UHGV virus genome: UHGV-2022489 | Reading direction: 5' to 3' (one strand) | Length of the DNA: 10,043 nt | DNA from: a virus | Part shown: piece by piece, positions 1 through 10,043 of the stretch | How positions within the stretch are numbered: the first letter of the stretch is position 1 | How the letters are laid out: the number at the start of each line of letters is the position of its first letter | Notes under the pieces: generated by a model | Databases searched by the model: none | What the model was told of the DNA's origin: nothing | The model's input: only the letters and a program-made list of their open reading frames with translations | Program-made: the position numbers and the translations under genes

Positions 1-216
1 TCAGTAAAGAGAATGAGAGATCAAAGTGGTCATTTTAATTGAGCTGGATAACGGACATTTCAATTGAGCCTTGACAAATGGTAAGGATGGCAGAATCTGG
101 CGGGAATCGTTGACACTGGCCGTCAACTGGCTACTATCGACAGTGATTCAAAATCATCCGTTTCTCCAAACGAATCAGAATCAAATGTCTGTCAGCAGTA
201 AGTGAACGGCCTGACC

Positions 217-414
217 TCACCAATCAGGCCTGTTCATCCAGTTAGTTGGTAAATCTGTACCTGATACACGAGAATCAAACACCACTTCTTCAGTGCCATC
301 ACCATGATGCCGGATAATCTGGTAACCGGATTGCGGGTTCTGGCTCTCAGCTTCATAAGCAGCCCGGAATGCTGGATCTTTGAGAAGCATCACTTTCAGC
401 TCCTGATGTGTCAT
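217..414 (-). CDS. Small hypothetical protein; the track ORF is 217..465, but the start is more likely the internal Met at 412-414 (MTHQELKVMLLKDPAFRAAYEAES...), giving about 65 aa. Function unknown; could be phage or host.
   Basis: Open frame in the track. The internal ATG at 412-414 is preceded by GGAAAAA, whereas the first ATG at 463-465 has no recognisable Shine-Dalgarno. No motif I can assign. Confidence 0.3.
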   Translation of the reverse strand: MTHQELKVMLLKDPAFRAAYEAESQNPQSGYQIIRHHGDGTEEVVFDSRVSGTDLPTNWMNRPDW

Positions 415-587
415 GAATTTTTCCATGATAAGCCCCGATGAATGCTGCCGCGCCGAATCAGCCATAACGCTGAAAATGGAAACTGTACGGCTTGGCCAAC
501 CCCGGACAGCAACAAAACAAGTTTTGTCACTGACCGGCGTTATCTTTCAAAAAAGACAGTTAACGATTTTTTGTCTGGTGTTTATGC

Positions 588-614
588 GTGAAATTTCGTG
601 CGTACGAAATTCAC
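588..614. repeat. Imperfect inverted repeat (hairpin-capable) in the non-coding region downstream of the secretin gene: GTGAAATTTCGT-gcgt-ACGAAATTCAC.
   Basis: Read directly: arms of about 11 bp with one bulged base. In Ff-type phages the region after gene IV carries packaging and origin hairpins; the same role here is inference. Confidence 0.4.
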
Positions 615-947
615 CACCAATAAACAAACGGACGATGACTGACCGGAAAAGCAATGCCGTCAGCATCATGACCACGCATTACCTGATTGAGAAGCCTTCT
701 GACTTCACGGCGCTCAGGCCTGGTCATCATCATATTGCGATACCAGGACGGCGATTTATCAAACCATCTGGCACAACTGGCAAAATGTGAACCGACACGA
801 CGATAAGACTTAAGGCGGCCACCGGGAAGTCGGTCACGCGCCTTATTTTTTACAGACATAATAAATCCTCTAAGTAACTGAATACCTAGAAGATGTCGTA
901 CTGTTCATACCCCATAAAAGTTAACGCCATAATAAAAATCCATACAA

Positions 948-2192
948 TCAGTTCAGGTTGTCCCGGAACAGTTCACCGCTCCTCGCGGCGCTGCGGGGCG
1001 TCGCCCTGCTCCGGTCAACCTTTCTGACCTGAAGCATCACCATAATATCAGTCTTGTTGCTTTCACTGGTACGGGAACCGAAGAAGCTCCAGCCGGAACT
1101 GGCCTTACTGTCTTTCTGTTCAGCAAGGCCACCAAGTAAAATAATGTCACCATCTGCAAGGCTGACTTCGGTTGTTACATCACGCTTGATAAGGGTTGGC
1201 GAGTTATTGACGCCGGTTTCAGCGGTCACAAAGTTGGAAAGCTGCTGCTGAATCTTGAGATCCATTGTCCGACTTTTGATTGATGGCGTCACGTTAAACA
1301 AAACACCGCTGGAACGATATTCAACGGATTGCGTTGTCGTATTGTTATTCACCGTAACACTGCCCAGTACTGGCACATCAGAGCCGACTGAAAAAGACGC
1401 TGAGGCATTATTTTTTACCCGCAGTCGTGGCGCACTGACAACAGTAAAACGACTGTCGGTTTTCAGCAGATTGAAAATGGCATCAATGGAGCCGGTTCGA
1501 ATATTGATAAAATTATCCAGTCCGGCAGCACCAACTGAAATATTGAATTTATCAGACAGAATTTTAGCCGCTAAAAGAATGCCGGAGCCGTCAGACTGCG
1601 AGGTCTGAACCTCAAAAACATAACCAGAAACAACCACTTCATCACTCATCGTATCCAGCGAAGTGACCAGTGTTTTCAGGATGGCGATATCCTCTTTCGT
1701 ACCATAATAAACCAGAATATCACCGGTTCGATTGATGTAGTTGCTTGCCCCTGATGAACCTTTTAGCGAATCGTCAGAAATCACGGCTCCACTGTTATTG
1801 AAGGAGCCTGAAACGTAGCCGCCAAGAATATCAGACAGGTAGGCAACAGAACGGTACTGAGGCGTATAAGTCCATGTATAACGTGGCTTAACCGGCTCTT
1901 TCGGCGTATAGGGCGCGATAAAATCAACACCCTTTTTCGTCCATATTCGAATGTTCATATTGCCAAGATAACGGGTTACAAATTCCCGTTCATCAATATC
2001 AGGTGTTAACCTGAATGTAATCATTCGTTCATCATTAACAAGCTGTGGATCTAGCATATACGGGACTTTAAGCACCTCACTGTAAATAAGAGAAATAGCC
2101 TCCGGTAGCTTGACTTTATTTAATTCAAGCTCTGACCCTGCGAAAGCACATGAAGAAAATAGTAGCGTTAATGCGAGTAAAATCTTTTTCAT
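948..2192 (-). CDS. Filamentous-phage pIV-type secretin (outer-membrane export channel), 414 aa
   Basis: N-terminal signal peptide (MKKILLALTLLFSSCAFAG); C-terminal secretin-like segment (DGDIILLGGLAEQKDSK...SGWSFFGSRTSESNKTDIMVMLQVRKV); last gene of the morphogenesis block. Its ATG (2190-2192) overlaps the stop of the upstream pI-like gene by one base (TAATG), indicating translational coupling. Confidence 0.85.
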   Translation of the reverse strand: MKKILLALTLLFSSCAFAGSELELNKVKLPEAISLIYSEVLKVPYMLDPQLVNDERMITFRLTPDIDEREFVTRYLGNMNIRIWTKKGVDFIAPYTPKEPVKPRYTWTYTPQYRSVAYLSDILGGYVSGSFNNSGAVISDDSLKGSSGASNYINRTGDILVYYGTKEDIAILKTLVTSLDTMSDEVVVSGYVFEVQTSQSDGSGILLAAKILSDKFNISVGAAGLDNFINIRTGSIDAIFNLLKTDSRFTVVSAPRLRVKNNASASFSVGSDVPVLGSVTVNNNTTTQSVEYRSSGVLFNVTPSIKSRTMDLKIQQQLSNFVTAETGVNNSPTLIKRDVTTEVSLADGDIILLGGLAEQKDSKASSGWSFFGSRTSESNKTDIMVMLQVRKVDRSRATPRSAARSGELFRDNLN

Positions 2193-3217
2193 TATTTTTT
2201 CCCCGTATAAAGCGTCACACGCTCACCATCAATAATTCCGCTCATCAACATCCCTTTGTAATTAAAACTAGATGCAGGAACGGCACGCAAAACACCGGCA
2301 CCGTTAACAAGAATCACAAACGCCCTGCCTTCACTGGTCATTCTCCCTGATATACGCCACTCGGTTGAAAGTGGCGGTTCAGCTGGTTCTGAGGGAGTAT
2401 CTGATGCTGGAGTAGCAGCGGAAGAACGAAACATGGCCGCATCACGTACATCTGTTGTAGTCAAATCTGGCGAGGGATCGCTTCGGCCAAACGTGCTGAA
2501 AAATGAGTAAATCAGCCAGCCTGACCCGATAAACATCAATGGAAAAAGCACAAGAAAGAACCTGACTTTGCCAGAATTCCAGATGCTCTGGCGTTTATCT
2601 GTCTGCTTTTCATTACCGTTATTTCCTTCATAGCTTTTGTAAAGTTCAAAAATATCAGGGTTATATTTATTGCGATAACTGGTGACGAGGTTGCTTTTAT
2701 AGATTTTGTGGCCTGAATATACGTCAATGCAGTAATGATTATTCAGGCCCAACGCTTTCAGCTTGCGCATCCGGTAAGTTGTTTCTATTTTGTCTTTCAG
2801 AAAGCGAGCAATATTAGAAAGTGACTGATTTACAATAACCAAAGCACAGCTAATACCCGTTTCAGGGTGCGTAAAATGACGATGTTCAGCAATAAATGAT
2901 TTCTTCTCAGCCGTCATATCCTTATCGCTACCGAAGATTCGCCATGCTTCATCAATAACAATTAAATCACCAAACTGGCAAAAGCTCCCTTCCCCACCTT
3001 TAAAAGGAAAGAAATCTGCTTTAAGCACATCATCATTATCCACAACAATAATTTCTCCCGTTGCATCAGGATAACGTTCGGTGATTTTATCTTTTTGTAA
3101 ACCATAAATGTTCGTCACAACTCTCCGGCCGCTGGTAAATGCCGGAATAATGACATTGCAAACGGCTTCATAACTTTTTCCTGAGCCGGGTATGCCAATA
3201 TATGCAGAAATAGCCAT
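2192..3217 (-). CDS. Filamentous-phage pI / Zot-like assembly NTPase, 341 aa
   Basis: Walker A P-loop near the N-terminus (GIPGSGKS, aa 8-15), one predicted transmembrane helix (FFLVLFPLMFIGSGWLIYSFF) after the NTPase domain, and a position directly upstream of the secretin, as for gene I of Ff and zot of CTXphi. Confidence 0.85.
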   Translation of the reverse strand: MAISAYIGIPGSGKSYEAVCNVIIPAFTSGRRVVTNIYGLQKDKITERYPDATGEIIVVDNDDVLKADFFPFKGGEGSFCQFGDLIVIDEAWRIFGSDKDMTAEKKSFIAEHRHFTHPETGISCALVIVNQSLSNIARFLKDKIETTYRMRKLKALGLNNHYCIDVYSGHKIYKSNLVTSYRNKYNPDIFELYKSYEGNNGNEKQTDKRQSIWNSGKVRFFLVLFPLMFIGSGWLIYSFFSTFGRSDPSPDLTTTDVRDAAMFRSSAATPASDTPSEPAEPPLSTEWRISGRMTSEGRAFVILVNGAGVLRAVPASSFNYKGMLMSGIIDGERVTLYTGKK

Positions 3218-4763
3218 AACTCACCCTATAACAGGAATACGTCGAATTAATAATTGGCGTTAAAATATCTCTTGCCGTTGGCGTTTCTTCAAGCTCAGGC
3301 TCTTTTACACCGGGATCTTCTCCCAAATCTATATTGCCATTATTTCCGGTGTCAGATCCTGAGTTGTTATTAATGGTAATATCAATATTGACGTCAGCCC
3401 CTGCACTGTCAGATACAGGTGAAAGCATATCTAATAACGTTGGAGATAGCCTAAGTTCCGACATCGCAGAAGTTACTTCAGCCGGTGAAACCTCTTTAAA
3501 CGGTAAGCCGTTATAATCGGCATTAACGGCAGCTTCAGACCACAGCTCGTTAATCATGTCGGCAAGAAGTGCTGGCGATACACTAACACTATCAAGATAC
3601 TCCAGATAATCAATCATGGACTCAATATTTCCTGCCTCCAGTACTTCCGTCATGGCTTTATATTTGGTATTGGTCCAGATAGTAAGCTCACTCTTTTCAT
3701 CAATATCTTTTGCGGTGTAATCCTCTTTTTCAGGAACGGCGCAAATCGTCGAATATCCACCATTTGACTGATTAGTCGTTTTACAAGGCGTGTTGTGATA
3801 CTGATATTGCTTGCCTGCTGTTAAATAAGCAACGCTGTAATACATGGGAAGCCCTGCTACATTTTCATACATGGGAATACCTGCGGGAAATGAAGATGCG
3901 GCCGGGTTGCTATACAAGTGTGTAATTTCTGGTATTTCATAAAATGAGGAAGGATAAGTAAACTTATAATTCTGTTCAGTAAAGGATACATCTCCATTAC
4001 TGTTGACAACTTTATTCGTCACAGTGCGTTCAAAATTTGTTAGTGTTTCAGTATAAGTACGCGAGTTATAGTCATTAAGATAATTTCTGGCAATTTCAGT
4101 TGGATTATCACCATAGTAATAAATTAGCTCTTTCGAATCCTGATAATAATAAAGTGCATTATCTGGCGTGGAATATCCTGTTTCAACACCTACAACTGGA
4201 GAACCCGCATCCACATTATTACGACTAACATGAAGGATTACCGGACTTAATTCCTGTGGTTCAAAATTAACGGTTATCGTCTTACTTTCACCACTTTGAC
4301 CACTGTACGTTACTTCATATAAATTATCGGAAATCTTTTTACCGTTAGTCATTACCATTACCGAGCCGTCAGATGAACTCAAAGAAGACGGAACAAAAGA
4401 TGATACAGCAGCAGCAATACCCGCCCACGTTGCAACACCGCTCATTTTGTATGATGAGGCAGCAGGCAAGTATTCGGCAGCATTAGCCGCAGCGCGGCCA
4501 ACAAAAACACGGGTTGCTGTAAGCTGTGATGCCGTATAAATCGCATCATTGGCAGCAAAGCGACGAACAAGCACCCGGCCAACGACTTTAGGAATAACAG
4601 CCCGCGCAGCCACTGCTGCAATTGCTGGTACAAATGAATATGAATATCGGGGAAAGGAAACCCAGAGAAAGGAAAAAATAAAGGAATAAACCGTCAGCCT
4701 CTTAGCCCAAGAATAACGACATAAGCTGAGACGATCCCCCATAAAAGGGAACCCAATTTCCAT
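3168..4763 (-). CDS. pIII-like minor coat / adsorption protein (putative), 531 aa; start codon uncertain
   Basis: Large ORF immediately downstream of the major coat gene. GGAGA lies about 8 nt upstream of the ATG at 4761-4763. Contains a Gly/Asn/Ser-rich linker (NNNSGSDTGNNGNIDLGEDPG) typical of inter-domain linkers in pIII-type proteins. The assignment is by position and composition only. The 3' end overlaps the pI-like gene by 50 nt. Confidence 0.55.
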   Translation of the reverse strand: MEIGFPFMGDRLSLCRYSWAKRLTVYSFIFSFLWVSFPRYSYSFVPAIAAVAARAVIPKVVGRVLVRRFAANDAIYTASQLTATRVFVGRAAANAAEYLPAASSYKMSGVATWAGIAAAVSSFVPSSLSSSDGSVMVMTNGKKISDNLYEVTYSGQSGESKTITVNFEPQELSPVILHVSRNNVDAGSPVVGVETGYSTPDNALYYYQDSKELIYYYGDNPTEIARNYLNDYNSRTYTETLTNFERTVTNKVVNSNGDVSFTEQNYKFTYPSSFYEIPEITHLYSNPAASSFPAGIPMYENVAGLPMYYSVAYLTAGKQYQYHNTPCKTTNQSNGGYSTICAVPEKEDYTAKDIDEKSELTIWTNTKYKAMTEVLEAGNIESMIDYLEYLDSVSVSPALLADMINELWSEAAVNADYNGLPFKEVSPAEVTSAMSELRLSPTLLDMLSPVSDSAGADVNIDITINNNSGSDTGNNGNIDLGEDPGVKEPELEETPTARDILTPIINSTYSCYRVSYGYFCIYWHTRLRKKL

Positions 4764-4827
4764 AATTCAATCTCCATAATAACCTCAAGTAAAACGGGCG
4801 ATATTGCATCGCCCATGAATAATGAAT

Positions 4828-5061
4828 TTATGCGGATTTAACGGTACGCAATACCCAGCGAACGCCAGCGACACCGGCATAAAGTGTTACCAGTGAAGCA
4901 GCAACGGCCATAATCGCAACCAGAACTGTACTGAAATCAATGCTGTTCGTCAGCGGCGATAAATCAACACCACTTGATGCCGCTCCTTCTGCAGCGAAAG
5001 TCGCGCCAGAAACAGCCATTAATGCAGGTACAGCCAGAAAACTAACGATTTTTTTAAACAT
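4828..5061 (-). CDS. pVIII-like major coat protein precursor, 77 aa
   Basis: Signal peptide (MFKKIVSFLAVPALMAVSGATFA) followed by a mature sequence beginning AEG (Ff pVIII mature protein begins AEGDDP), a hydrophobic helix (VLVAIMAVAASLVTLYAGVAGV) and a basic C-terminus (RWVLRTVKSA). GGAGA lies 8 nt upstream of the ATG. Confidence 0.8.
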   Translation of the reverse strand: MFKKIVSFLAVPALMAVSGATFAAEGAASSGVDLSPLTNSIDFSTVLVAIMAVAASLVTLYAGVAGVRWVLRTVKSA

Positions 5062-5095
5062 AACTCTATCTCCATTACATTTTAAAGGTTCGCAT

Positions 5096-5347
5096 TCAAG
5101 CAGTACGAACCATCTTTATTACCTGTCCCACACCTACAGAAAAAAGCCAGAGCAGCAGGACAGAGCCAAAACCTAATGTCCAGTAATTTTCCATTGCAGA
5201 ATAATCAATTTGATGAAATGGTTCAGAACGTACCATTATTGCCTGACATTCTTTTGCATTGTTCGCATTACATAAATAACCTTCAATACGGTAACCATTT
5301 TCAGGAATATGATTATCAAACTGAATATCGAAACCTGATGTATCCAT
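5096..5347 (-). CDS. Hypothetical phage protein with a C-terminal transmembrane anchor, 83 aa (possible minor virion or assembly protein)
   Basis: ORF between the ssDNA-binding-like gene and the major coat gene, where Ff encodes pVII/pIX. C-terminal hydrophobic helix (WTLGFGSVLLLWLFSVGVGQVI) followed by basic residues (KMVRTA). No recognisable catalytic motif. Confidence 0.45.
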   Translation of the reverse strand: MDTSGFDIQFDNHIPENGYRIEGYLCNANNAKECQAIMVRSEPFHQIDYSAMENYWTLGFGSVLLLWLFSVGVGQVIKMVRTA

Positions 5348-5349
5348 AA

Positions 5350-5667
5350 TCAGCCTTTTATTTCAGTAATGCCGCCATCTGATGAAATGTTATAAGTTAC
5401 TCCTTCCCTCCCCTCCATTGACCAGACGCGAACATATACAGGTATCTGGACTAACTTACCGATAAAATTATTTGCCTGATTCATTACACCGGCATTAACA
5501 AGAGCCTGAGATACACGAATAATAATCTGGTCTTGCTTAGTGCCGCCAAAACCATCAGGAATCTCTAAGCCAACACCAATTTCATTATAGTATCCCTGAC
5601 CATTGACCTTATTACGCTGGCGAGCACCAAGCATTTTACCTTTTACAAAAAGACCATAATTAGACAT
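5350..5667 (-). CDS. Putative ssDNA-binding protein (gene V / RstB position), 105 aa
   Basis: Small ORF directly downstream of the Rep gene and tightly packed with its neighbours, as for gene V in Ff and rstB in CTXphi. Assignment is by size and synteny only. Confidence 0.45.
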   Translation of the reverse strand: MSNYGLFVKGKMLGARQRNKVNGQGYYNEIGVGLEIPDGFGGTKQDQIIIRVSQALVNAGVMNQANNFIGKLVQIPVYVRVWSMEGREGVTYNISSDGGITEIKG

Positions 5668-5678
5668 ATCACTCTCCT

Positions 5679-6731
5679 TTAATGCCAGTTACTGGCATGT
5701 GAAATACGGTTATAATCGAAAATTAAACCTTTCTCATAAACCCATGATGGAATTTTGGCTGGTTTGGCTTCAAGAGTACGAACCAACGGAACAACGTTAT
5801 TAGAATCCGGTGACTCACAATAAAAGTTAATATCTATTCCGAAAGAAAGTAATTCTTTACGGTGTCGGTAGAATGTAGGTTTCGGAAACATCTCTTTCAT
5901 GTTCGCGCCCTGCTTCCACAATAAATATGTAGACTGTATTTTTCTTGGGAGATTAATTATTTTTTCATCAGTTAATATAGTATTTTGATTCATTTCTATT
6001 CTCCCTACATAGTCAGAGAATAATTTATTGGGCGTCTCAATATTCCAGCTATTACCAAGCGTAAGATTCAAATCAATTAATTCAGTTGTTCTTAATGTTA
6101 ATTCAATGCGTAATTTATCTTTTGACCAGTCCAGTAAACCAGCTTTAACGAATTCGTCTGCCATCTGGTGCCCTTTTTTGCCAGATGTATGCTCATCATA
6201 TTTTGAATAAAATTTCAGGCTCCAACGACGGGAGTTTTTCCCTAAGTAAACAGTGCCACCTTTACCACAGGCGCGACCGTGGCGAGTTTTAGCTTTAAAT
6301 TCTGCGGCATATAACCATGCGCGGACATTTTCTAATGTTGACAATGAATACATGTAATTGATATCGATGCGCGAGATCTTAAATTGCCCTTCCATGACCT
6401 GCCGATAGGATGGTAGATCATGAGGAATATGCAGTAATGCCAATATTCTGGCGTAAGTTGTTACCACCAACCCTTGCAAATCGTCGGGACCGATAACAGA
6501 GTGACCTTGCAAAAACTTTGATGGATTACCGTCAATGTAGAGATGTGTTGCCCGACCTTCACCATCAGATCCAACAGACCTTACTTTCATTGTGGACTCA
6601 TGCGAACCGCGAACGGTCAACCGTTTTACTGTTTCCCACTCCACTGCACCGTCAGCATCGACGCTGACGACACTACCAGCCGGTAACGGTCGGTGTGTGC
6701 AAGGCAGGATTCCGGTAAACCAGTCGATCAT
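5679..6731 (-). CDS. Rolling-circle replication initiation protein (pII / RstA-like, Rep_trans-type), 350 aa
   Basis: First gene of the minus-strand phage operon, divergent from the HTH repressor. Contains a segment (GKGGTVYLGKNSRRWSLKFYSKYDE) resembling the conserved G-x-T-x-Y-x-G-x-R ... Y-x-K motif of Rep_trans replication initiators. Confidence 0.8.
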   Translation of the reverse strand: MIDWFTGILPCTHRPLPAGSVVSVDADGAVEWETVKRLTVRGSHESTMKVRSVGSDGEGRATHLYIDGNPSKFLQGHSVIGPDDLQGLVVTTYARILALLHIPHDLPSYRQVMEGQFKISRIDINYMYSLSTLENVRAWLYAAEFKAKTRHGRACGKGGTVYLGKNSRRWSLKFYSKYDEHTSGKKGHQMADEFVKAGLLDWSKDKLRIELTLRTTELIDLNLTLGNSWNIETPNKLFSDYVGRIEMNQNTILTDEKIINLPRKIQSTYLLWKQGANMKEMFPKPTFYRHRKELLSFGIDINFYCESPDSNNVVPLVRTLEAKPAKIPSWVYEKGLIFDYNRISHASNWH

Positions 6732-6902
6732 AAGTAGTCACACCCATCAAAATATACGTCAATAGTCATTTGTGAGCGGATTAAATGGTCACAATGTAAT
6801 ATGCTCAGATCTGACAGTCAATACATTTGCAATGTTTAAATTGTCAGAAATGAGCATAAAATCTAACTATTGAAAAACCACTGTTAAGATGGAGCCAAGT
6901 AG
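6732..6902. promoter_or_regulatory. Divergent promoter/operator region between the Rep gene and the repressor gene
   Basis: 171-bp AT-rich intergenic region between divergent genes. Contains inverted repeats (TCTGACA ... TGTCAGA around 6810-6860; near-palindrome CATTTGCAATG) that could be operator sites. Exact promoters were not mapped. Confidence 0.5.
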
Positions 6903-7349
6903 ATGGGCAACAATGAGCATGAAGTTATGGCGGACAAACAGAGAGCAGAACGTATCAAAAAGGTAATTCTGGAACACTCGACTTATGAAGAACTGGCCGA
7001 GAAGACTGGCATTAGCGTGAGTACGCTGGTCAGGATAGCGTCCGGCAAAACTGAACCTAAATTCAGTGACATCATTCAGATAGCTAAAATTACGGGTGCA
7101 GACTTAAACACCTTAGCTTATGGCTATACTCTTGATGTTAAAGAAGAAGCTACCGAGCGGAAGCTAATCACTTCTGCGGATGGATATACTGATGAAGAAA
7201 CCACTAACGCACATAATTTCATCGTGTGGAACATCAGGACACTGGAAAAACAAGATATTCTGGCACTCGCAAGGCAGGTTTCTGCATTAAGTTCATACAC
7301 TTACAGTACTAAAATGTTTATGAAAAAAGCGGTGTCTGGAGAAGAGTAA
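6903..7349 (+). CDS. XRE-family helix-turn-helix transcriptional repressor (RstR-like phage repressor), 148 aa
   Basis: Classic Cro/C1-type HTH (STYEELAEKTGISVSTLVRIASGKTEPKFSDIIQIAKITGADLNTLA); divergent from the Rep gene as rstR is in CTXphi; GGAG about 9 nt upstream of the ATG. Confidence 0.8.
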   Translation: MGNNEHEVMADKQRAERIKKVILEHSTYEELAEKTGISVSTLVRIASGKTEPKFSDIIQIAKITGADLNTLAYGYTLDVKEEATERKLITSADGYTDEETTNAHNFIVWNIRTLEKQDILALARQVSALSSYTYSTKMFMKKAVSGEE

Positions 7350-7378
7350 AAGGATTAACAGTCTCAGGAATGAGACAA

Positions 7379-7413
7379 ACGTGCAGTATTACCAACACTG
7401 CACGTTCTTTATT
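7379..7413 (+). terminator. Rho-independent terminator downstream of the repressor gene
   Basis: Perfect 9-bp stem (ACGTGCAGT, 9-nt loop, ACTGCACGT) followed by TCTTTATT, 30 nt after the stop codon. Confidence 0.6.
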
Positions 7414-7448
7414 GTGCGAATTTTGAACAGTAAAAAAGGATCAAAAGG

Positions 7449-7871
7449 ATGAGTAGAAATAACGAAACAAGCGGCGTTGAACTGGTTGTCGTCGGCGTAT
7501 TTGCTTTCTGTCTGGCAGTTGTTGCCTGGCTAATGAAAACTTTCGATGTTGAATGGCAAACAGCACTGGAAACTGCGCCTGGCCTGATAGTCTGGCTGCT
7601 TGTTGTTGGGGCGGGGATCTTTTTCGGGATCAAAATGGAAACAGGCCTTGTTCGCTGGGGTGCTCCACTGGCGATCGCCCTTCTGATTCCGGTATTCAAA
7701 CCAATTCTTAAGGAAGCTGCCGGAGTACGTGAAATGGGTGGGTTGGTTTTCGATGATATGGTTTCGTGGTACGGAACTGGCTGGGGAATGTCGTTAATGT
7801 TTTTCGGTATTCTTATCGTCGGATACGGTCTGCTTTATTGGTGGCACAGAAGAAACTCTTATTATTGGTAA
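7449..7871 (+). CDS. Small integral membrane protein with four predicted transmembrane helices, 140 aa; function unknown
   Basis: Four hydrophobic segments (LVVVGVFAFCLAVVAWLM; GLIVWLLVVGAGIFFGI; WGAPLAIALLIPVF; WGMSLMFFGILIVGYGLLYWW); AAGGA-type RBS upstream of the ATG. No motif I can assign. Confidence 0.7.
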   Translation: MSRNNETSGVELVVVGVFAFCLAVVAWLMKTFDVEWQTALETAPGLIVWLLVVGAGIFFGIKMETGLVRWGAPLAIALLIPVFKPILKEAAGVREMGGLVFDDMVSWYGTGWGMSLMFFGILIVGYGLLYWWHRRNSYYW

Positions 7872-7938
7872 GCAATTTTGCTCCATATATCAGCGGTGAA
7901 GTTCAGAGGTGGTTATTTTTTAGTCTTGAGGAAAGATA

Positions 7939-8733
7939 ATGAAGCCAGAAAAAGCTATCGAGATATTAAAAAGACAACGGGAGCAAATCCCAGCAATACA
8001 AAATGAACGAAGGAGTACAGGAAATAACCCAAGTTTTAACTTGTGGCAAAGAAACACTAAGACCGCCATATCAAAAATATTTGGTGAAGAGTCAGATCAC
8101 AAAAAAGAATTTGGCTCAATTCGATACTCTTTAATGGCATTTGTTGGTGATACACCAGATTATGTTTTCGATAACGCATTTTGTAGTGGTTTAGATGAAG
8201 CACATTCTCTTCTTACGTCTATGATCGCTGAGATTGAAGAATATGGAATTGACGGAAATTTCATAGAGACAAAAAATGATGCCGTAGCTCTTGTTGAACT
8301 AATTTGCCATCAATTTCATAAGGTTGCAAGACAGCTACAGCAACGACACGATAATAGACAAACCATTGAAATAAATGACGAATATGACGTTCAGGATTTA
8401 TTTCATGCTCTTTTGAAGATTCATTTCGAGGATGTCAGACCAGAAGAATATACGCCAAGCTATGCAGGATCTTCAACACGAGTTGACTTCTTGTTAAAGA
8501 ATGAAAAAATCATTATCGAGTTAAAGAAAACGAGAAAAAATCTCAAGCAAAAAGAAGTTGGTGAGCAATTAATTGTTGATATAGCTCATTATCAAACGCA
8601 TCCTGATTGCGAAACTTTAGTGTGTTTTGTATATGACCCTGAAGGTAGAATTGCCAATCCAATTGGTGTGGAGAATGACCTTGAGCGTTGTACAAATTCA
8701 ATTTCGGTAAAAGTAATAATCTCACCAAAATAA
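7939..8733 (+). CDS. Hypothetical two-domain protein, 264 aa, with a candidate PD-(D/E)xK nuclease motif in the C-terminal half
   Basis: GAGGAAAG RBS upstream of the ATG. C-terminal region contains an acidic helix (EYDVQDLF, FEDV), then RVD183FLL and, 10 residues later, IIE194LK196, matching the D...(D/E)xK arrangement of restriction-endonuclease-fold nucleases. The N-terminal half is helical-looking and contains R131-x5-H137. Family not identified. Confidence 0.7.
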   Translation: MKPEKAIEILKRQREQIPAIQNERRSTGNNPSFNLWQRNTKTAISKIFGEESDHKKEFGSIRYSLMAFVGDTPDYVFDNAFCSGLDEAHSLLTSMIAEIEEYGIDGNFIETKNDAVALVELICHQFHKVARQLQQRHDNRQTIEINDEYDVQDLFHALLKIHFEDVRPEEYTPSYAGSSTRVDFLLKNEKIIIELKKTRKNLKQKEVGEQLIVDIAHYQTHPDCETLVCFVYDPEGRIANPIGVENDLERCTNSISVKVIISPK

Positions 8734-8743
8734 AAGGACATAT

Positions 8744-9010
8744 ATGGCTACTGTAGATGATGTTGCACAATGGATGAAATCAGAGCTGGAAAACACAAAC
8801 TGGCTATATCAAGAAACTGTTGTATATAAAATAAAAGAGTTATTTGGCGATACTTTCGTATATTTGAATGCTAATGGAAATTTATCCATTGATAAAAAAG
8901 TATTAGCGAAATTTAGAAAGCTAACTAATGACACGGTTATATGGGAGAGAGGTGAAAAAGCATGGCGAAAAAGACAAGGTTATGATGCCCCTGGTCGACA
9001 GCAGGACTAA
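8744..9010 (+). CDS. Small hypothetical protein, 88 aa, translationally coupled to the upstream 264-aa gene; basic C-terminus
   Basis: Starts 10 nt after the upstream stop with AAGGA in the gap; followed within about 35 nt by a strong terminator. No recognisable motif. Confidence 0.65.
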   Translation: MATVDDVAQWMKSELENTNWLYQETVVYKIKELFGDTFVYLNANGNLSIDKKVLAKFRKLTNDTVIWERGEKAWRKRQGYDAPGRQQD

Positions 9011-9044
9011 ATAATTGGTTCGCACAATGACGTTATGCTAAAGA

Positions 9045-9080
9045 GGCCGCTGCGGGATTCGATCTTCGCAGCGGCCTTTT
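9045..9080 (+). terminator. Rho-independent terminator ending the two-gene cargo operon
   Basis: Perfect 10-bp GC-rich stem (GGCCGCTGCG, 12-nt loop, CGCAGCGGCC) followed by TTTT. Confidence 0.75.
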
Positions 9081-9110
9081 CAACATAACGAGTCGTACAT
9101 TATGCGCACT
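9078..9110. other. Candidate dif-like XerC/XerD recombination site (possible prophage attachment junction)
   Basis: TTATGCGCACt (9100-9110) matches the reverse complement of the E. coli dif XerC arm (TTATGCGCACC) at 10/11. tTTcAACATAA (9078-9088) matches the XerD arm (ATTTAACATAA) at 9/11. The intervening 11 bp is longer than the 6-bp dif core. The dif sequence is recalled from memory. Confidence 0.4.
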
Positions 9111-9259
9111 CATGTTGTAGTAGCCAACTTGAGATGTCCGTCTCTGACCAAATAGACATGTCCGCGCTACAGTCTCACCACAGCGATCACTGCTTTTAAA
9201 GATAGTTTCCCAATCAAAGGATTCTGATGACGGATCATGCACCGGCATTTTTACTTTGG

Positions 9260-9537
9260 ATGAAGTTAACCGACTCTAAATCATTCATGACGTTGTCGAC
9301 CGGCGTCTGACCACTCAGATGGCCGCGCAGCGCCTGGGTATTCCCGATCGTCAGTGCCGATGCCTTCTCTCGCGTTACAATCAATCAGGCCCACTGAGTA
9401 TGCCTAACCGCCGTCGTGGATAACCCAGCAATAACCAGCTGCCTGATGGTCTTGCCCGGTACGCACTCAATATTATCCGCGAATGCTATACCGACTTTGG
9501 ACCTAGGCTGGCGTATGAGAATGTTGTCTACTTGTGA
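9260..9537 (+). pseudogene. Decayed N-terminal fragment of an IS transposase (HTH region only; frameshift near 9280 and in-frame TAA at 9421-9423; C-terminal catalytic domain absent)
   Basis: Translation reads ...VVDRRLTTQMAAQRLGIPDRQCRCLLSRYNQSGPLSMPNRRRG*PSNNQLPDGLARYALNIIRECYTDFGPRLAYENVVYL*, resembling the conserved N-terminal HTH region of IS481/ISNCY-like transposases (recalled pattern ...RLL.RY...G...L.H.NRG.PSN..L...YADFGP.LA.EKL). An ATG at 9260-9262 (MKLTDSKSF) is in a different frame from the HTH segment. Confidence 0.55.
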
Positions 9538-9640
9538 AAAAAACTCATAACACCATTCAATGGCGCATGCTGGTTCCCTTCATACCAGTGCAATACCCTG
9601 TCACATACATAATTGCTGGCAATAAAAGAAGGAACACCGA

Positions 9641-10043
9641 ATGAAGTATGTGAATCTGGGTCGTAGCGGGTTGAAAGTCTCCCGTCTTTGTCTCGGTTGT
9701 ATGAGTTATGGCGAACCTGAACGTTTGCCTCAACCCTGGTCCCTGGATGAAAAGGCGTCACGACCGCTCATTCGTCAGGCGCTTGAAGCCGGCATTAATT
9801 TTTTTGATACCGCGAATATCTACTCGGGCGGTAGTTCAGAAGAAATTACAGGAAAAGCGCTGAGAGAGATGGCCAGACGCGACGAGATAGTTGTAGCGAC
9901 AAAGACCTTCTTTCCGTGGCGCAACTCACCCAATACCGGGTTTCTTTCCCGCAAGGCCATTTTTCAGTCTATTGACGATAGCCTGATGCGCTTAGGCATG
10001 GATTATGTGGATCTCTTTCAGATTCATCGCTTTGACTACTCCA
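9641..10043 (+). CDS. Aldo-keto reductase, YajO-like (5' portion; CDS continues beyond the window end)
   Basis: Absent from the ORF track because no stop lies inside the window. ATG at 9641 preceded by AAGAAGGAA. Translation MKYVNLGRSGLKVSRLCLGCMSYGEPERLPQPWSLDEKASRPLIRQALEAGINFFDTANIYSGGSSEEITGKALREMARRDEIVVATKTFFPW...MRLGMDYVDLFQIHRFDYS carries AKR hallmarks (LG.S.L.VS.L.LGCM at the N-terminus; GINFFDTA.iY; DYVDL.QIHR.D) and closely resembles E. coli YajO as I recall it. Confidence 0.85.
   Translation, partial: MKYVNLGRSGLKVSRLCLGCMSYGEPERLPQPWSLDEKASRPLIRQALEAGINFFDTANIYSGGSSEEITGKALREMARRDEIVVATKTFFPWRNSPNTGFLSRKAIFQSIDDSLMRLGMDYVDLFQIHRFDYS

Follow-up and report, generated by a model that had tools for sequence, protein, structure and literature searches.

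How does a filamentous phage that encodes no integrase come to reside in a bacterial chromosome, and at which base does such a prophage end? Both questions are raised by the virus genome UHGV-2022489, a stretch of 10,043 nucleotides (the window) in which phage genes lie beside host-type genes. A sequence-only reading had proposed that a dif-like XerC/XerD site with an extended spacer marks the edge of the prophage. The comparison reported here covers the location of dif, the anatomy of the junctions, an exchange of the XerC arm, the conservation of paired sites and a predicted fold. The site at 9078–9110 is very probably the junction, on the attP side, of a prophage of the YpfΦ/CUSΦ lineage that entered the dif site of Klebsiella pneumoniae through host XerC and XerD, by the CTXφ-type route.

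Identity and gene content of the prophage

On nucleotide identity, the element is a YpfΦ/CUSΦ phage with a different accessory module. Over 74–7429 it is 99.4% identical to YpfΦ of Y. pestis (reference NCTC5923), its attP region (9012–9109) is 98–99% identical to the same genome, and its pII protein shares 99% identity with one of Y. pestis. The sole part that differs from YpfΦ is the cargo region, 7430–9011, which is missing in Y. pestis YpfΦ and present in E. coli copies. The earlier reading had named the Ypf/CUS-type lineage; the element proves to be YpfΦ/CUSΦ itself. The annotated features of the phage are as follows.

77–9099, minus strand: body of a YpfΦ/CUSΦ-type filamentous prophage (Pfam; nucleotide identity to YpfΦ; extents of the E. 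coli copies)
948–2192, minus strand: secretin/pIV (Pfam)
2192–3217, minus strand: Zot/pI (Pfam)
3168–4763, minus strand: truncated pIII-like protein
4828–5061, minus strand: coat protein (coat B; Pfam)
5096–5347, minus strand: 83-aa ORF
5350–5667, minus strand: G5P (Pfam)
5679–6731, minus strand: G2P (Pfam)
6903–7349, plus strand: repressor-like HTH gene (Pfam), inside the prophage
7449–7871, plus strand: 140-aa ORF, variable cargo inside the prophage
7939–8733, plus strand: 264-aa protein with a DpnII/MboI-type restriction endonuclease (REase) domain (Pfam), variable cargo inside the prophage
8744–9010, plus strand: DUF6953 protein, variable cargo inside the prophage

A Pfam search of ten ORFs found no integrase or recombinase, only inovirus functions, the HTH repressor and the nuclease-domain cargo protein, in agreement with the earlier observation that the window holds no integrase gene. 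The transposase material in the window is insertion sequence (IS) debris, all of it outside the phage. The phage was identified through genome contigs rather than through the phage collection, where megablast of the window returned only a 76-bp match to the end of ISKpn21 and no YpfΦ-like record.

The same cargo-bearing version is found in 21 of 5,426 complete E. coli genomes, where the match runs from 74 or 77 to 9109 or 9112 and adjoins hipA. These copies extend past the cargo, and the proposal that the cargo operon lies inside the prophage if the junction is a true one is thereby upheld. Tandem arrays additionally reveal the circular form of the phage: in the E. coli copies, ...TTATGCGCACC is joined directly to AATGGTAAGG..., which connects 9110 to 77. 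The circular junction is seen in tandem arrays of both E. coli and Y. pestis, with the general form ...TTATGCGCAC followed by C or T and then by AATGGTAAGG...

A dif-like site and its inverted partner

The boundary region contains the following elements.

9110 to 9100, minus strand: XerC-binding arm AGTGCGCATAA, matching the E. coli XerC arm GGTGCGCATAA at 10/11 positions
9099 to 9089, minus strand: 11-nt central region TGTACGACTCG, of phage origin; it opens with the four bases TGTA, the XerC side of the dif centre TGTATA
9088 to 9078, minus strand: XerD-like arm TTATGTTGAAA, phage-derived, matching the XerD arm TTATGTTAAAT at 9/11 positions
9044–9077: G+C-rich apical stem-loop of the attP hairpin (stem 9045–9054/9067–9076, loop 9055–9066)
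9017–9043, plus strand: inverted partner site, made up of GGTTCGCACAA (9017–9027, 9/11), the 5-nt spacer TGACG (9028–9032) and TTATGCTAAAG (9033–9043, 9/11)

The whole window was scanned for dif sites on both strands, with up to 3 mismatches allowed in each arm and spacers of 4–14. Exactly two were found, the site at 9078–9110 and the inverted site at 9017–9043, which together lie within 94 bases. For the first, the position, both arm matches and the 11-nt spacer of the sequence-only reading were all reproduced; the partner was absent from that reading. The XerD-like arm TTATGTTGAAA is identical in the Y. pestis, E. coli, Photorhabdus and IMG/VR copies.

A match of this kind might be thought a chance resemblance in ordinary DNA past a terminator, and with the loose thresholds of the scan shuffled windows do yield a mean of 0.8 matches each. 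At the observed quality of 3 total mismatches, however, 300 dinucleotide-preserving shuffles give an expectation of just 0.003 sites per window, and two sites of up to 4 mismatches occurred in none of the 300; the site at 9078–9110 is therefore real. Moreover, it forms the prophage boundary to the base in the 21 E. coli genomes and in 10 K. pneumoniae loci, and it coincides with the host dif at an empty site (described below), a comparison that by itself already refutes chance resemblance. The probability of a meaningless match is close to nil.

The host dif site, empty and occupied

The right flank of the window identifies the host as K. pneumoniae. In K. pneumoniae WRC19_AI1572C (L004) the site is empty and reads ...ATTTAACATAA-TATACA-TTATGCGCACT-CATGTTGTAGTAGC...; the host dif in this genome, AGTGCGCATAA-TGTATA-TTATGTTAAAT, directly abuts the flank that the window has from 9111 on. 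Only 9096–9110 (TACATTATGCGCACT) is common to the window site and the host dif, and 9078–9095 is phage DNA. The prophage sits exactly at the host chromosomal dif. With the dif region of the chromosome identified, the replication terminus is therefore located as well.

Ten K. pneumoniae loci with the prophage were recovered, one of them (L017) 99.88% identical to the entire window, and the near junction is the same in all ten. In the six that reach far enough (L011–L016), the far end of the prophage carries a perfect 28-bp dif in the same orientation, and in four of these (L011, L014–L016) both flanks match the empty site at 58/60. In the window's own arrangement this regenerated dif lies outside the stretch analysed, about 2.3 kb to the left, and is seen in near-identical genomes (L011–L014 and L016); L017 stops short of it. 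The remaining locus, L015, has no ISKpn21, and its phage end CCATCCTTACCATT directly abuts the far-end dif. An E. coli copy (L002) likewise has a perfect dif at its far end. In L012 and L013, tailed-phage genes lie just past the XerD side of the regenerated dif, replacing the usual host flank.

The sequence-only reading had looked to the species' own dif, to a genome with an empty site and to a second dif-like site on the left as the evidence that would decide the matter. In the empty genome, dif abuts the flank from 9111 and the junction falls at this very site; the second site exists as a perfect dif, in K. pneumoniae as in E. coli. The two outcomes by which that reading was to be abandoned, a chromosomal dif elsewhere and 9078–9110 being ordinary host DNA, both fail.

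Insertion sequences at the prophage flanks

Both ends of the prophage are bordered by IS1202-family material, and beyond it on the right lies host DNA.

1–76, plus strand: right end of ISKpn21 (IS1202 family), wedged between the far end of the phage and the regenerated dif
77–81, plus strand: AATGG, the 5-bp target duplication of ISKpn21 and also the first five phage bases beside the XerC arm in the circular form
9111–9115, plus strand: CATGT, 5 bp of host DNA that separate the XerC arm from the old IS end
9116–9588, plus strand: decayed IS1202-family (ISNCY) element, host DNA that is also present in the empty site
9641–10043, plus strand: start of a host aldo/keto reductase gene

ISKpn21 sits 5 bp from the XerC arm of the regenerated dif, on the phage side; in L011 the other end of ISKpn21 is followed by CCATT and then by GGTGCGCATAA-TGTATA-TTATGTTAAAT. 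The decayed element on the right has its left end at 9116, so that 5 bp separate it from the XerC arm, whose outer base is 9110. Its left inverted repeat matches that of ISKpn21 at 38/55 positions, and it retains an N-terminal transposase fragment with stop codons. Both elements thus have the left end towards a XerC arm and 5 bp from it; a 5-bp duplication is seen for ISKpn21 only, the remnant being truncated. One E. coli genome has two tandem copies of ISKpn21 at this spot, each separated by AATGG.

This arrangement is that of the IS1202-family "dif hunters", which include ISKpn21 and ISAjo2 (Harmer, Pong & Hall 2023, PMC10132070) and for which the reported K. pneumoniae target is AGTGCGCATAA-TGTATA-TTATGTTAAAT (PMC10132070). 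The distance of 5 bp from the XerC arm, the inward left end, the 5-bp duplication and the K. pneumoniae target are all shared. Unlike in those cases, the elements here are part of the flanks of a prophage and not of phage integration, and one of them inserted on the phage side of a dif that the prophage had regenerated.

With ISKpn21 at the left end (1–76) and a related remnant starting 5 bp past the right junction, IS1202-family composite transposition or homologous recombination might have brought the prophage to its place, the dif-like site being incidental. The right-hand remnant is already present in the empty site, however, and so is older than the phage insertion, and the prophage of L015 abuts a perfect dif with no ISKpn21 between them; together these two loci effectively refute delivery as a composite transposon by the flanking IS elements. 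ISKpn21 also has its own AATGG duplication on both sides, which points to a separate insertion, and dif also holds the same phage in E. coli, Y. pestis, K. spallanzanii and Photorhabdus, where no IS is common to the copies. Delivery by IS elements or by homologous recombination is accordingly very improbable, and integration by XerC and XerD remains by far the better account of the junctions.

Exchange of the XerC arm

The two ends of the K. pneumoniae prophage carry different XerC arms. At the near junction, the arm begins with A (AGTGCGCATAA, followed by TGTACGACTCG) and is the one that K. pneumoniae itself has at dif. At the far junction of L011–L016, the arm begins with G (GGTGCGCATAA, followed by TGTATA and TTATGTTAAAT) and is the arm of the circular form of the phage, as read from tandem junctions in E. 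coli and Y. pestis. Judged by this comparison, the XerC arm at 9100–9110 is host-derived and not phage-derived.

Other hosts show the corresponding pattern. The E. coli arm, GGTGCGCATAA, stands at the near junction of E. coli lysogens; an IMG/VR copy (L027) has AGTACGCATAA there, the variant present in the dif of K. pneumoniae strain 176 (L003); and in a Y. pestis tandem array the arm of the outer junction (GGTGCACATAA) differs from the internal arm. Carnoy & Roten (2009) give the dif of Y. pestis CO92 as GGTGCGCATAA..., which is the regenerated site in that lysogen. Since CO92 thus offers the regenerated site and not the native arm, the arm-swap argument relies on K. pneumoniae. Such a swap fits an exchange of strands just where the XerC arm meets the central region.

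The predicted attP hairpin

When the region is folded as a single strand, 9017–9043 is predicted to pair with 9078–9110 such that the XerC arms pair with each other, the XerD arms do the same, and an asymmetric bulge forms in the centre. Within the predicted centre, ACTCG bulges out of the 11-nt spacer, whose TG and ACG are paired with the partner's 5-nt spacer. The earlier reading had been reminded by the 11-bp spacer of the atypical central regions of phage attP sites. The inverted partner accounts for that spacer: because a site with a 5-nt spacer would anneal to it, the 11-nt spacer can be understood as one side of an asymmetric bulge. The dif homology of the centre is confined to its XerC side (TGTA followed by CGACTCG, against TGTA followed by TA in dif), and the top spacer starts with TGT, as does the dif centre TGTATA, in 13/13 attP variants.

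The paired arrangement recurs in about 20 related loci, with a top spacer of 9–11 nt, a gap of 32–62 nt and an inverted site with a 5–6-nt spacer. Even diverged relatives (L006, L007 and L040) keep the bulged hairpin, though their arms, spacers and loops differ. An RNAalifold consensus has one helix for the XerC arms and another for the XerD arms, with a bulge between them, and ends in the apical stem. Double changes occur in 4 of 33 pairs, among variants most of which are near-identical and not independent; this covariation is consistent with the hairpin and not decisive.

The fold is also predicted to favour one strand. The gene-sense strand folds at −27.9 kcal/mol (z = −5.6), the other at −24.4 kcal/mol. 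Among 13 variants, differences between the arms appear as 34 G·T pairs and 31 mismatches on the gene-sense strand versus 15 and 50 on the complement, and the gene-sense strand is the more stable in 12, the reverse being true of one; the gap is small throughout (1–5 kcal/mol).

Between the two sites lies the apical stem-loop, which travels with the attP module in phages of different cargo (for example L008). The sequence-only reading had placed the dif-like site directly after a terminator of the cargo operon. A G+C-rich stem-loop does adjoin the site there, but it is the apical stem of the attP hairpin; a terminator scan did not call it, its loop being 12 nt (over 8 nt) and the stem being followed by only TTTT. 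At most, it is plausible that the stem-loop doubles as the terminator of the cargo operon.

Probable integration by XerC and XerD

In the circular phage, the inverted dif-like sites lie 34 nt apart with spacers of 11 nt and 5 nt. YpfΦ packages the (+) single strand. This corresponds to the minus strand of the window, and on it the two sites would anneal to a hairpin with duplex XerC and XerD arms and a bulged centre that is paired on the XerC side alone (TG/CA, ACG/CGT). XerC and XerD would take this hairpin as a mimic of dif, XerC would swap a single strand with dif where the XerC arm gives way to the centre, and replication would turn the intermediate into a prophage. At the attP end, the expected product has the host XerC arm leading into a centre, a XerD arm and a remaining hairpin that all come from the phage, and this is the site found in the window; the opposite end would receive the phage XerC arm together with the host centre and host XerD arm, an intact dif. 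Both junctions, as read at the near and far ends of L011–L016, are as expected from such an exchange by XerC.

The single-stranded substrate, catalysis by XerC alone, resolution by replication and irreversibility are modelled here on the CTXφ paradigm (PMC4246890, PMC4266046). By that analogy integration should be irreversible, because the 11-bp spacer would render the duplex junction site unusable. In the literature found, no experiment addresses how the YpfΦ attP folds or whether its integration needs XerC, and a review calls the sites "potential".

The same products could arise by a VGJφ-type route, in which the replicative form offers the site with the 11-nt spacer alone as a duplex attP, XerC recombines this site with dif, and excision stays available because the prophage is flanked by two compatible sites. 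A duplex crossover on the XerC side and a single-stranded hairpin substrate yield identical junctions, and VGJφ-type sites also need the XerC-side homology TGTA (PMC4246890). On the other hand, the attP of VGJφ is a single 29-bp site (PMC4246890), implying a centre of about 7 bp, whereas the spacer here is 9–11 nt in every variant. An inverted partner with a 5–6-nt spacer, 32–62 nt away, is present every time. The analogous CTXφ site, with its 12-bp centre, has been reported to be unusable as a duplex (PMC4246890), and the literature lists YpfΦ and CUS-1Φ as CTXφ-type. Nor does the prophage have the single duplex attP of about 29 bp, the near-canonical centre and the two Xer-compatible flanking sites of the VGJφ type, the spacing at the near junction not being dif-like. 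Because of the spacer length, the invariable inverted partner and the CTXφ precedent, a duplex crossover of the VGJφ type is unlikely, while keeping a small share of the probability. The degenerate XerD arm and the centre near-identical to dif that mark the TLCφ type are likewise not found, the XerD arm matching at 9/11 positions and the centre measuring 11 nt. The hairpin route of CTXφ is thus the preferred reading.

Relation to known phages

The two attP sites of CTXφ, inverted and separated by 90 bp, have centres of 12 bp (attP1) and 5–7 bp (attP2), and neither can be used as a duplex (PMC4246890). Once they have annealed in the (+) strand, a single strand is exchanged by XerC alone and replication finishes the integration, which is irreversible and owes its specificity to homology beside the XerC arm (PMC4246890). 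The folded CTXφ attP(+) hairpin comes from Val et al. (2005), as summarised in PMC4246890. The present prophage resembles this system in its paired inverted sites with a long and a short centre (11 and 5 nt here), in predicted (+)-strand annealing, in dif homology on the XerC side only, in the position of attP at the end of the cargo region, in doing without a phage integrase, and in a junction anatomy that fits a single strand exchange by XerC. It differs in that its sites are 34 nt apart rather than 90, and its sequence likeness to CTXφ is limited to the dif-like arms, the lineages being unrelated. Moreover, the mechanism has been established experimentally in CTXφ, whereas for this prophage it is proposed by analogy.

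YpfΦ of Y. pestis and CUS-1 (CUSΦ) of E. coli O18:K1:H7 are essentially the same phage as the element described here, with the same paired inverted sites and integration at dif (PMC4266046). They also share with it the intact dif regenerated at the attP-distal end, and they form tandem arrays in E. coli and Y. pestis. The K. pneumoniae prophage is distinguished by its host, by its cargo (the DpnII/MboI-type nuclease-domain protein and the DUF6953 protein), by a 465-bp deletion, by occurring as single copies and by the ISKpn21 between phage and dif. YpfΦ-like prophages at more than 98.7% identity have been reported across many Enterobacteria, and in the literature found their hosts include K. 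aerogenes, with K. pneumoniae not listed (PMC10354491).

The UPΦ phages of Enterobacterales (Shapiro & Putonti 2020, PMC7307601) also integrate at dif, often as tandem repeats, and have genes II and V in common with YpfΦ at over 85% amino-acid identity. One locus, L008, fits the UPΦ pattern: its match to the window is confined to the gene V/II region, the region of the 140-aa ORF and attP, and its attP region is 99% identical to that of the window. The morphogenesis genes of UPΦ resemble those of IKe and I2-2, whereas those in the window are of YpfΦ type.

The feature itself is already known, since dif integration of YpfΦ and the paired inverted XerCD sites have been published. What is added is modest, namely a K. 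pneumoniae junction resolved to the base, the arm-swap signature, and IS1202-family insertions at both XerC arms.

Defects and cargo of the K. pneumoniae copies

The 465-bp deletion is common to all K. pneumoniae copies. With it the DUF2523 gene, here regarded as the pVI equivalent, is lost, and the last ~65 residues of the pIII-like protein give way to other sequence; the copies are single, not tandem. From the biology of Ff and CTXφ, a prophage with such a deletion is expected to make no virions, and the K. pneumoniae prophage should accordingly yield none. Among the cargo, the 264-aa protein matches the helical-REase model of PADLOC (1e-34); PADLOC found no complete defence system in the cargo, its matches being at the level of domains alone.

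Because the K. pneumoniae copy is single, lacks the DUF2523 gene and the pIII membrane anchor, is split from dif by ISKpn21 and carries a nuclease-domain gene, it may be imagined as a locked, assembly-defective YpfΦ derivative retained at dif for its cargo, a tentative idea with the odds against it. If it were true, the regenerated dif and the attP sites of the phage would be recurrent targets of IS1202-family elements, and Xer, phage and IS would meet at the terminus in a three-way interplay not previously described. In a weaker variant, the junction with the 11-nt spacer may still bind XerCD as a duplex and offer an entry point to superinfecting phages; insertion of YpfΦ between tandem copies has been reported.

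Implications

For this prophage, the right-hand boundary is fixed to the base, and the nuclease-type cargo operon is placed inside the mobile element. For the hosts of such phages, the XerC arm at junctions of this kind reports the host in which integration happened. For the Enterobacterales at large, a G+C-rich "terminator" flanked by two imperfect pairs of dif half-sites is a reliable signature of a CTXφ-type attP.

Insertion elements and other mobile DNA beside dif

ISKpn21 and a decayed member of the IS1202 family, termed "dif hunters", are both found beside dif, as are flanks of atypical sequence.

ISKpn21: window 1-81; K. pneumoniae locus L011 12133-14427; E. coli EH09-18-41 (L002) 1766-6320
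Decayed IS1202-family element, with left inverted repeat and transposase N-terminus similar to ISKpn21: window 9116-9588
Atypical XerD-side flanks of dif: K. pneumoniae loci L012 and L013 14428-21245; L006, a diverged relative with the same kind of attP, 14156 onward; L002 1-1631

ISKpn21, with DUF6904 as its passenger gene, has inserted beside the dif regenerated by the prophage, at a distance of 5 bp from the XerC arm, and is accompanied by the duplication AATGG. The identical ISKpn21-phage junction is shared by K. pneumoniae and E. coli. One E. coli strain, EH09-18-41, has two tandem copies of ISKpn21, each separated by AATGG, which implies that the element has inserted repeatedly, targeted to one spot.

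On the right flank, 5 bp separate the XerC arm of the K. pneumoniae dif from the start of the decayed element. The left inverted repeat of that element agrees with the one in ISKpn21 at 38 of 55 positions, and 126 aa of its transposase N-terminus, interrupted by stop codons, match at 47% identity. Because this element lies so close to the XerC arm and is already present at the empty site, the K. pneumoniae dif was struck by a dif-hunting IS long ago. The decayed element in strain 176 (L003) contains a later ISKpn38 insertion.

Some Klebsiella genomes lack the usual host flank next to the XerD arm of the regenerated dif; in its place they have a sequence that reads TGCAGACCAAAACGAG... and, after it, tailed-phage genes for lysis and tail. 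Two integrase genes in E. coli EH09-18-41 terminate at a distance of 135 bp from dif, again on the XerD side. Other mobile elements seem to sit directly on this side.

Cargo next to attP

REase-domain cargo protein, 264 aa (Pfam, PADLOC): window 7939-8733
DUF6953 protein, 88 aa, following the 264-aa protein: window 8744-9010

Towards its C-terminus, the 264-aa protein has a restriction-endonuclease domain of the DpnII/MboI type (Pfam, 7e-59); the protein also matches the helical-REase model of PADLOC (1e-34), and its N-terminus is similar to PDC-S35. Of the ORFs tested, none was recognised as a methyltransferase. The two cargo genes possibly constitute a phage-borne defence or exclusion module. 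E. coli CU532-9 harbors two YpfΦ-type prophages in tandem (L001 1-4003 and 4001-13506) that differ in their attP-adjacent cargo: one has genes of 468 and 372 nt, the other those for the REase-domain and DUF6953 proteins. The attP-side slot is therefore a swap point inside one array.

Variation among prophage copies

IS5-like element, ends GGAAGGTGCGAACAAG..., within the XerD-like arm of the inverted partner site: K. pneumoniae locus L016 1020-2730
pIII-like region, affected by a deletion not seen in the E. coli and Y. pestis copies: window 3168-4763, with the deletion junction near 3247-3253

Most K. pneumoniae copies (L011-L015, about 4093-5290) contain a tandem duplication of ~750 bp that doubles the HTH repressor gene, which is single-copy in the window and L017. 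In L016, the attP hairpin is split by the IS5-like insertion.

On a contig whose label names a Candidatus Nanosynbacter MAG (L008 8258-16596), an enterobacterial filamentous prophage lies between a perfect E. coli-type dif and an attP that shares 99% identity with that of the window. The contig of the diverged relative L007 is labelled Aerococcus; both labels likely reflect binning contamination.

The window prophage is missing 465 bp that the E. coli and Y. pestis copies have. The DUF2523 gene, regarded here as the pVI equivalent, is lost through this deletion, and the pIII-like protein ends in an unrelated 25-residue tail instead of its last ~65 residues. Since all ten of the K. pneumoniae loci examined share the deletion, the K. 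pneumoniae prophage is probably assembly-defective and passed on as a fixed variant.
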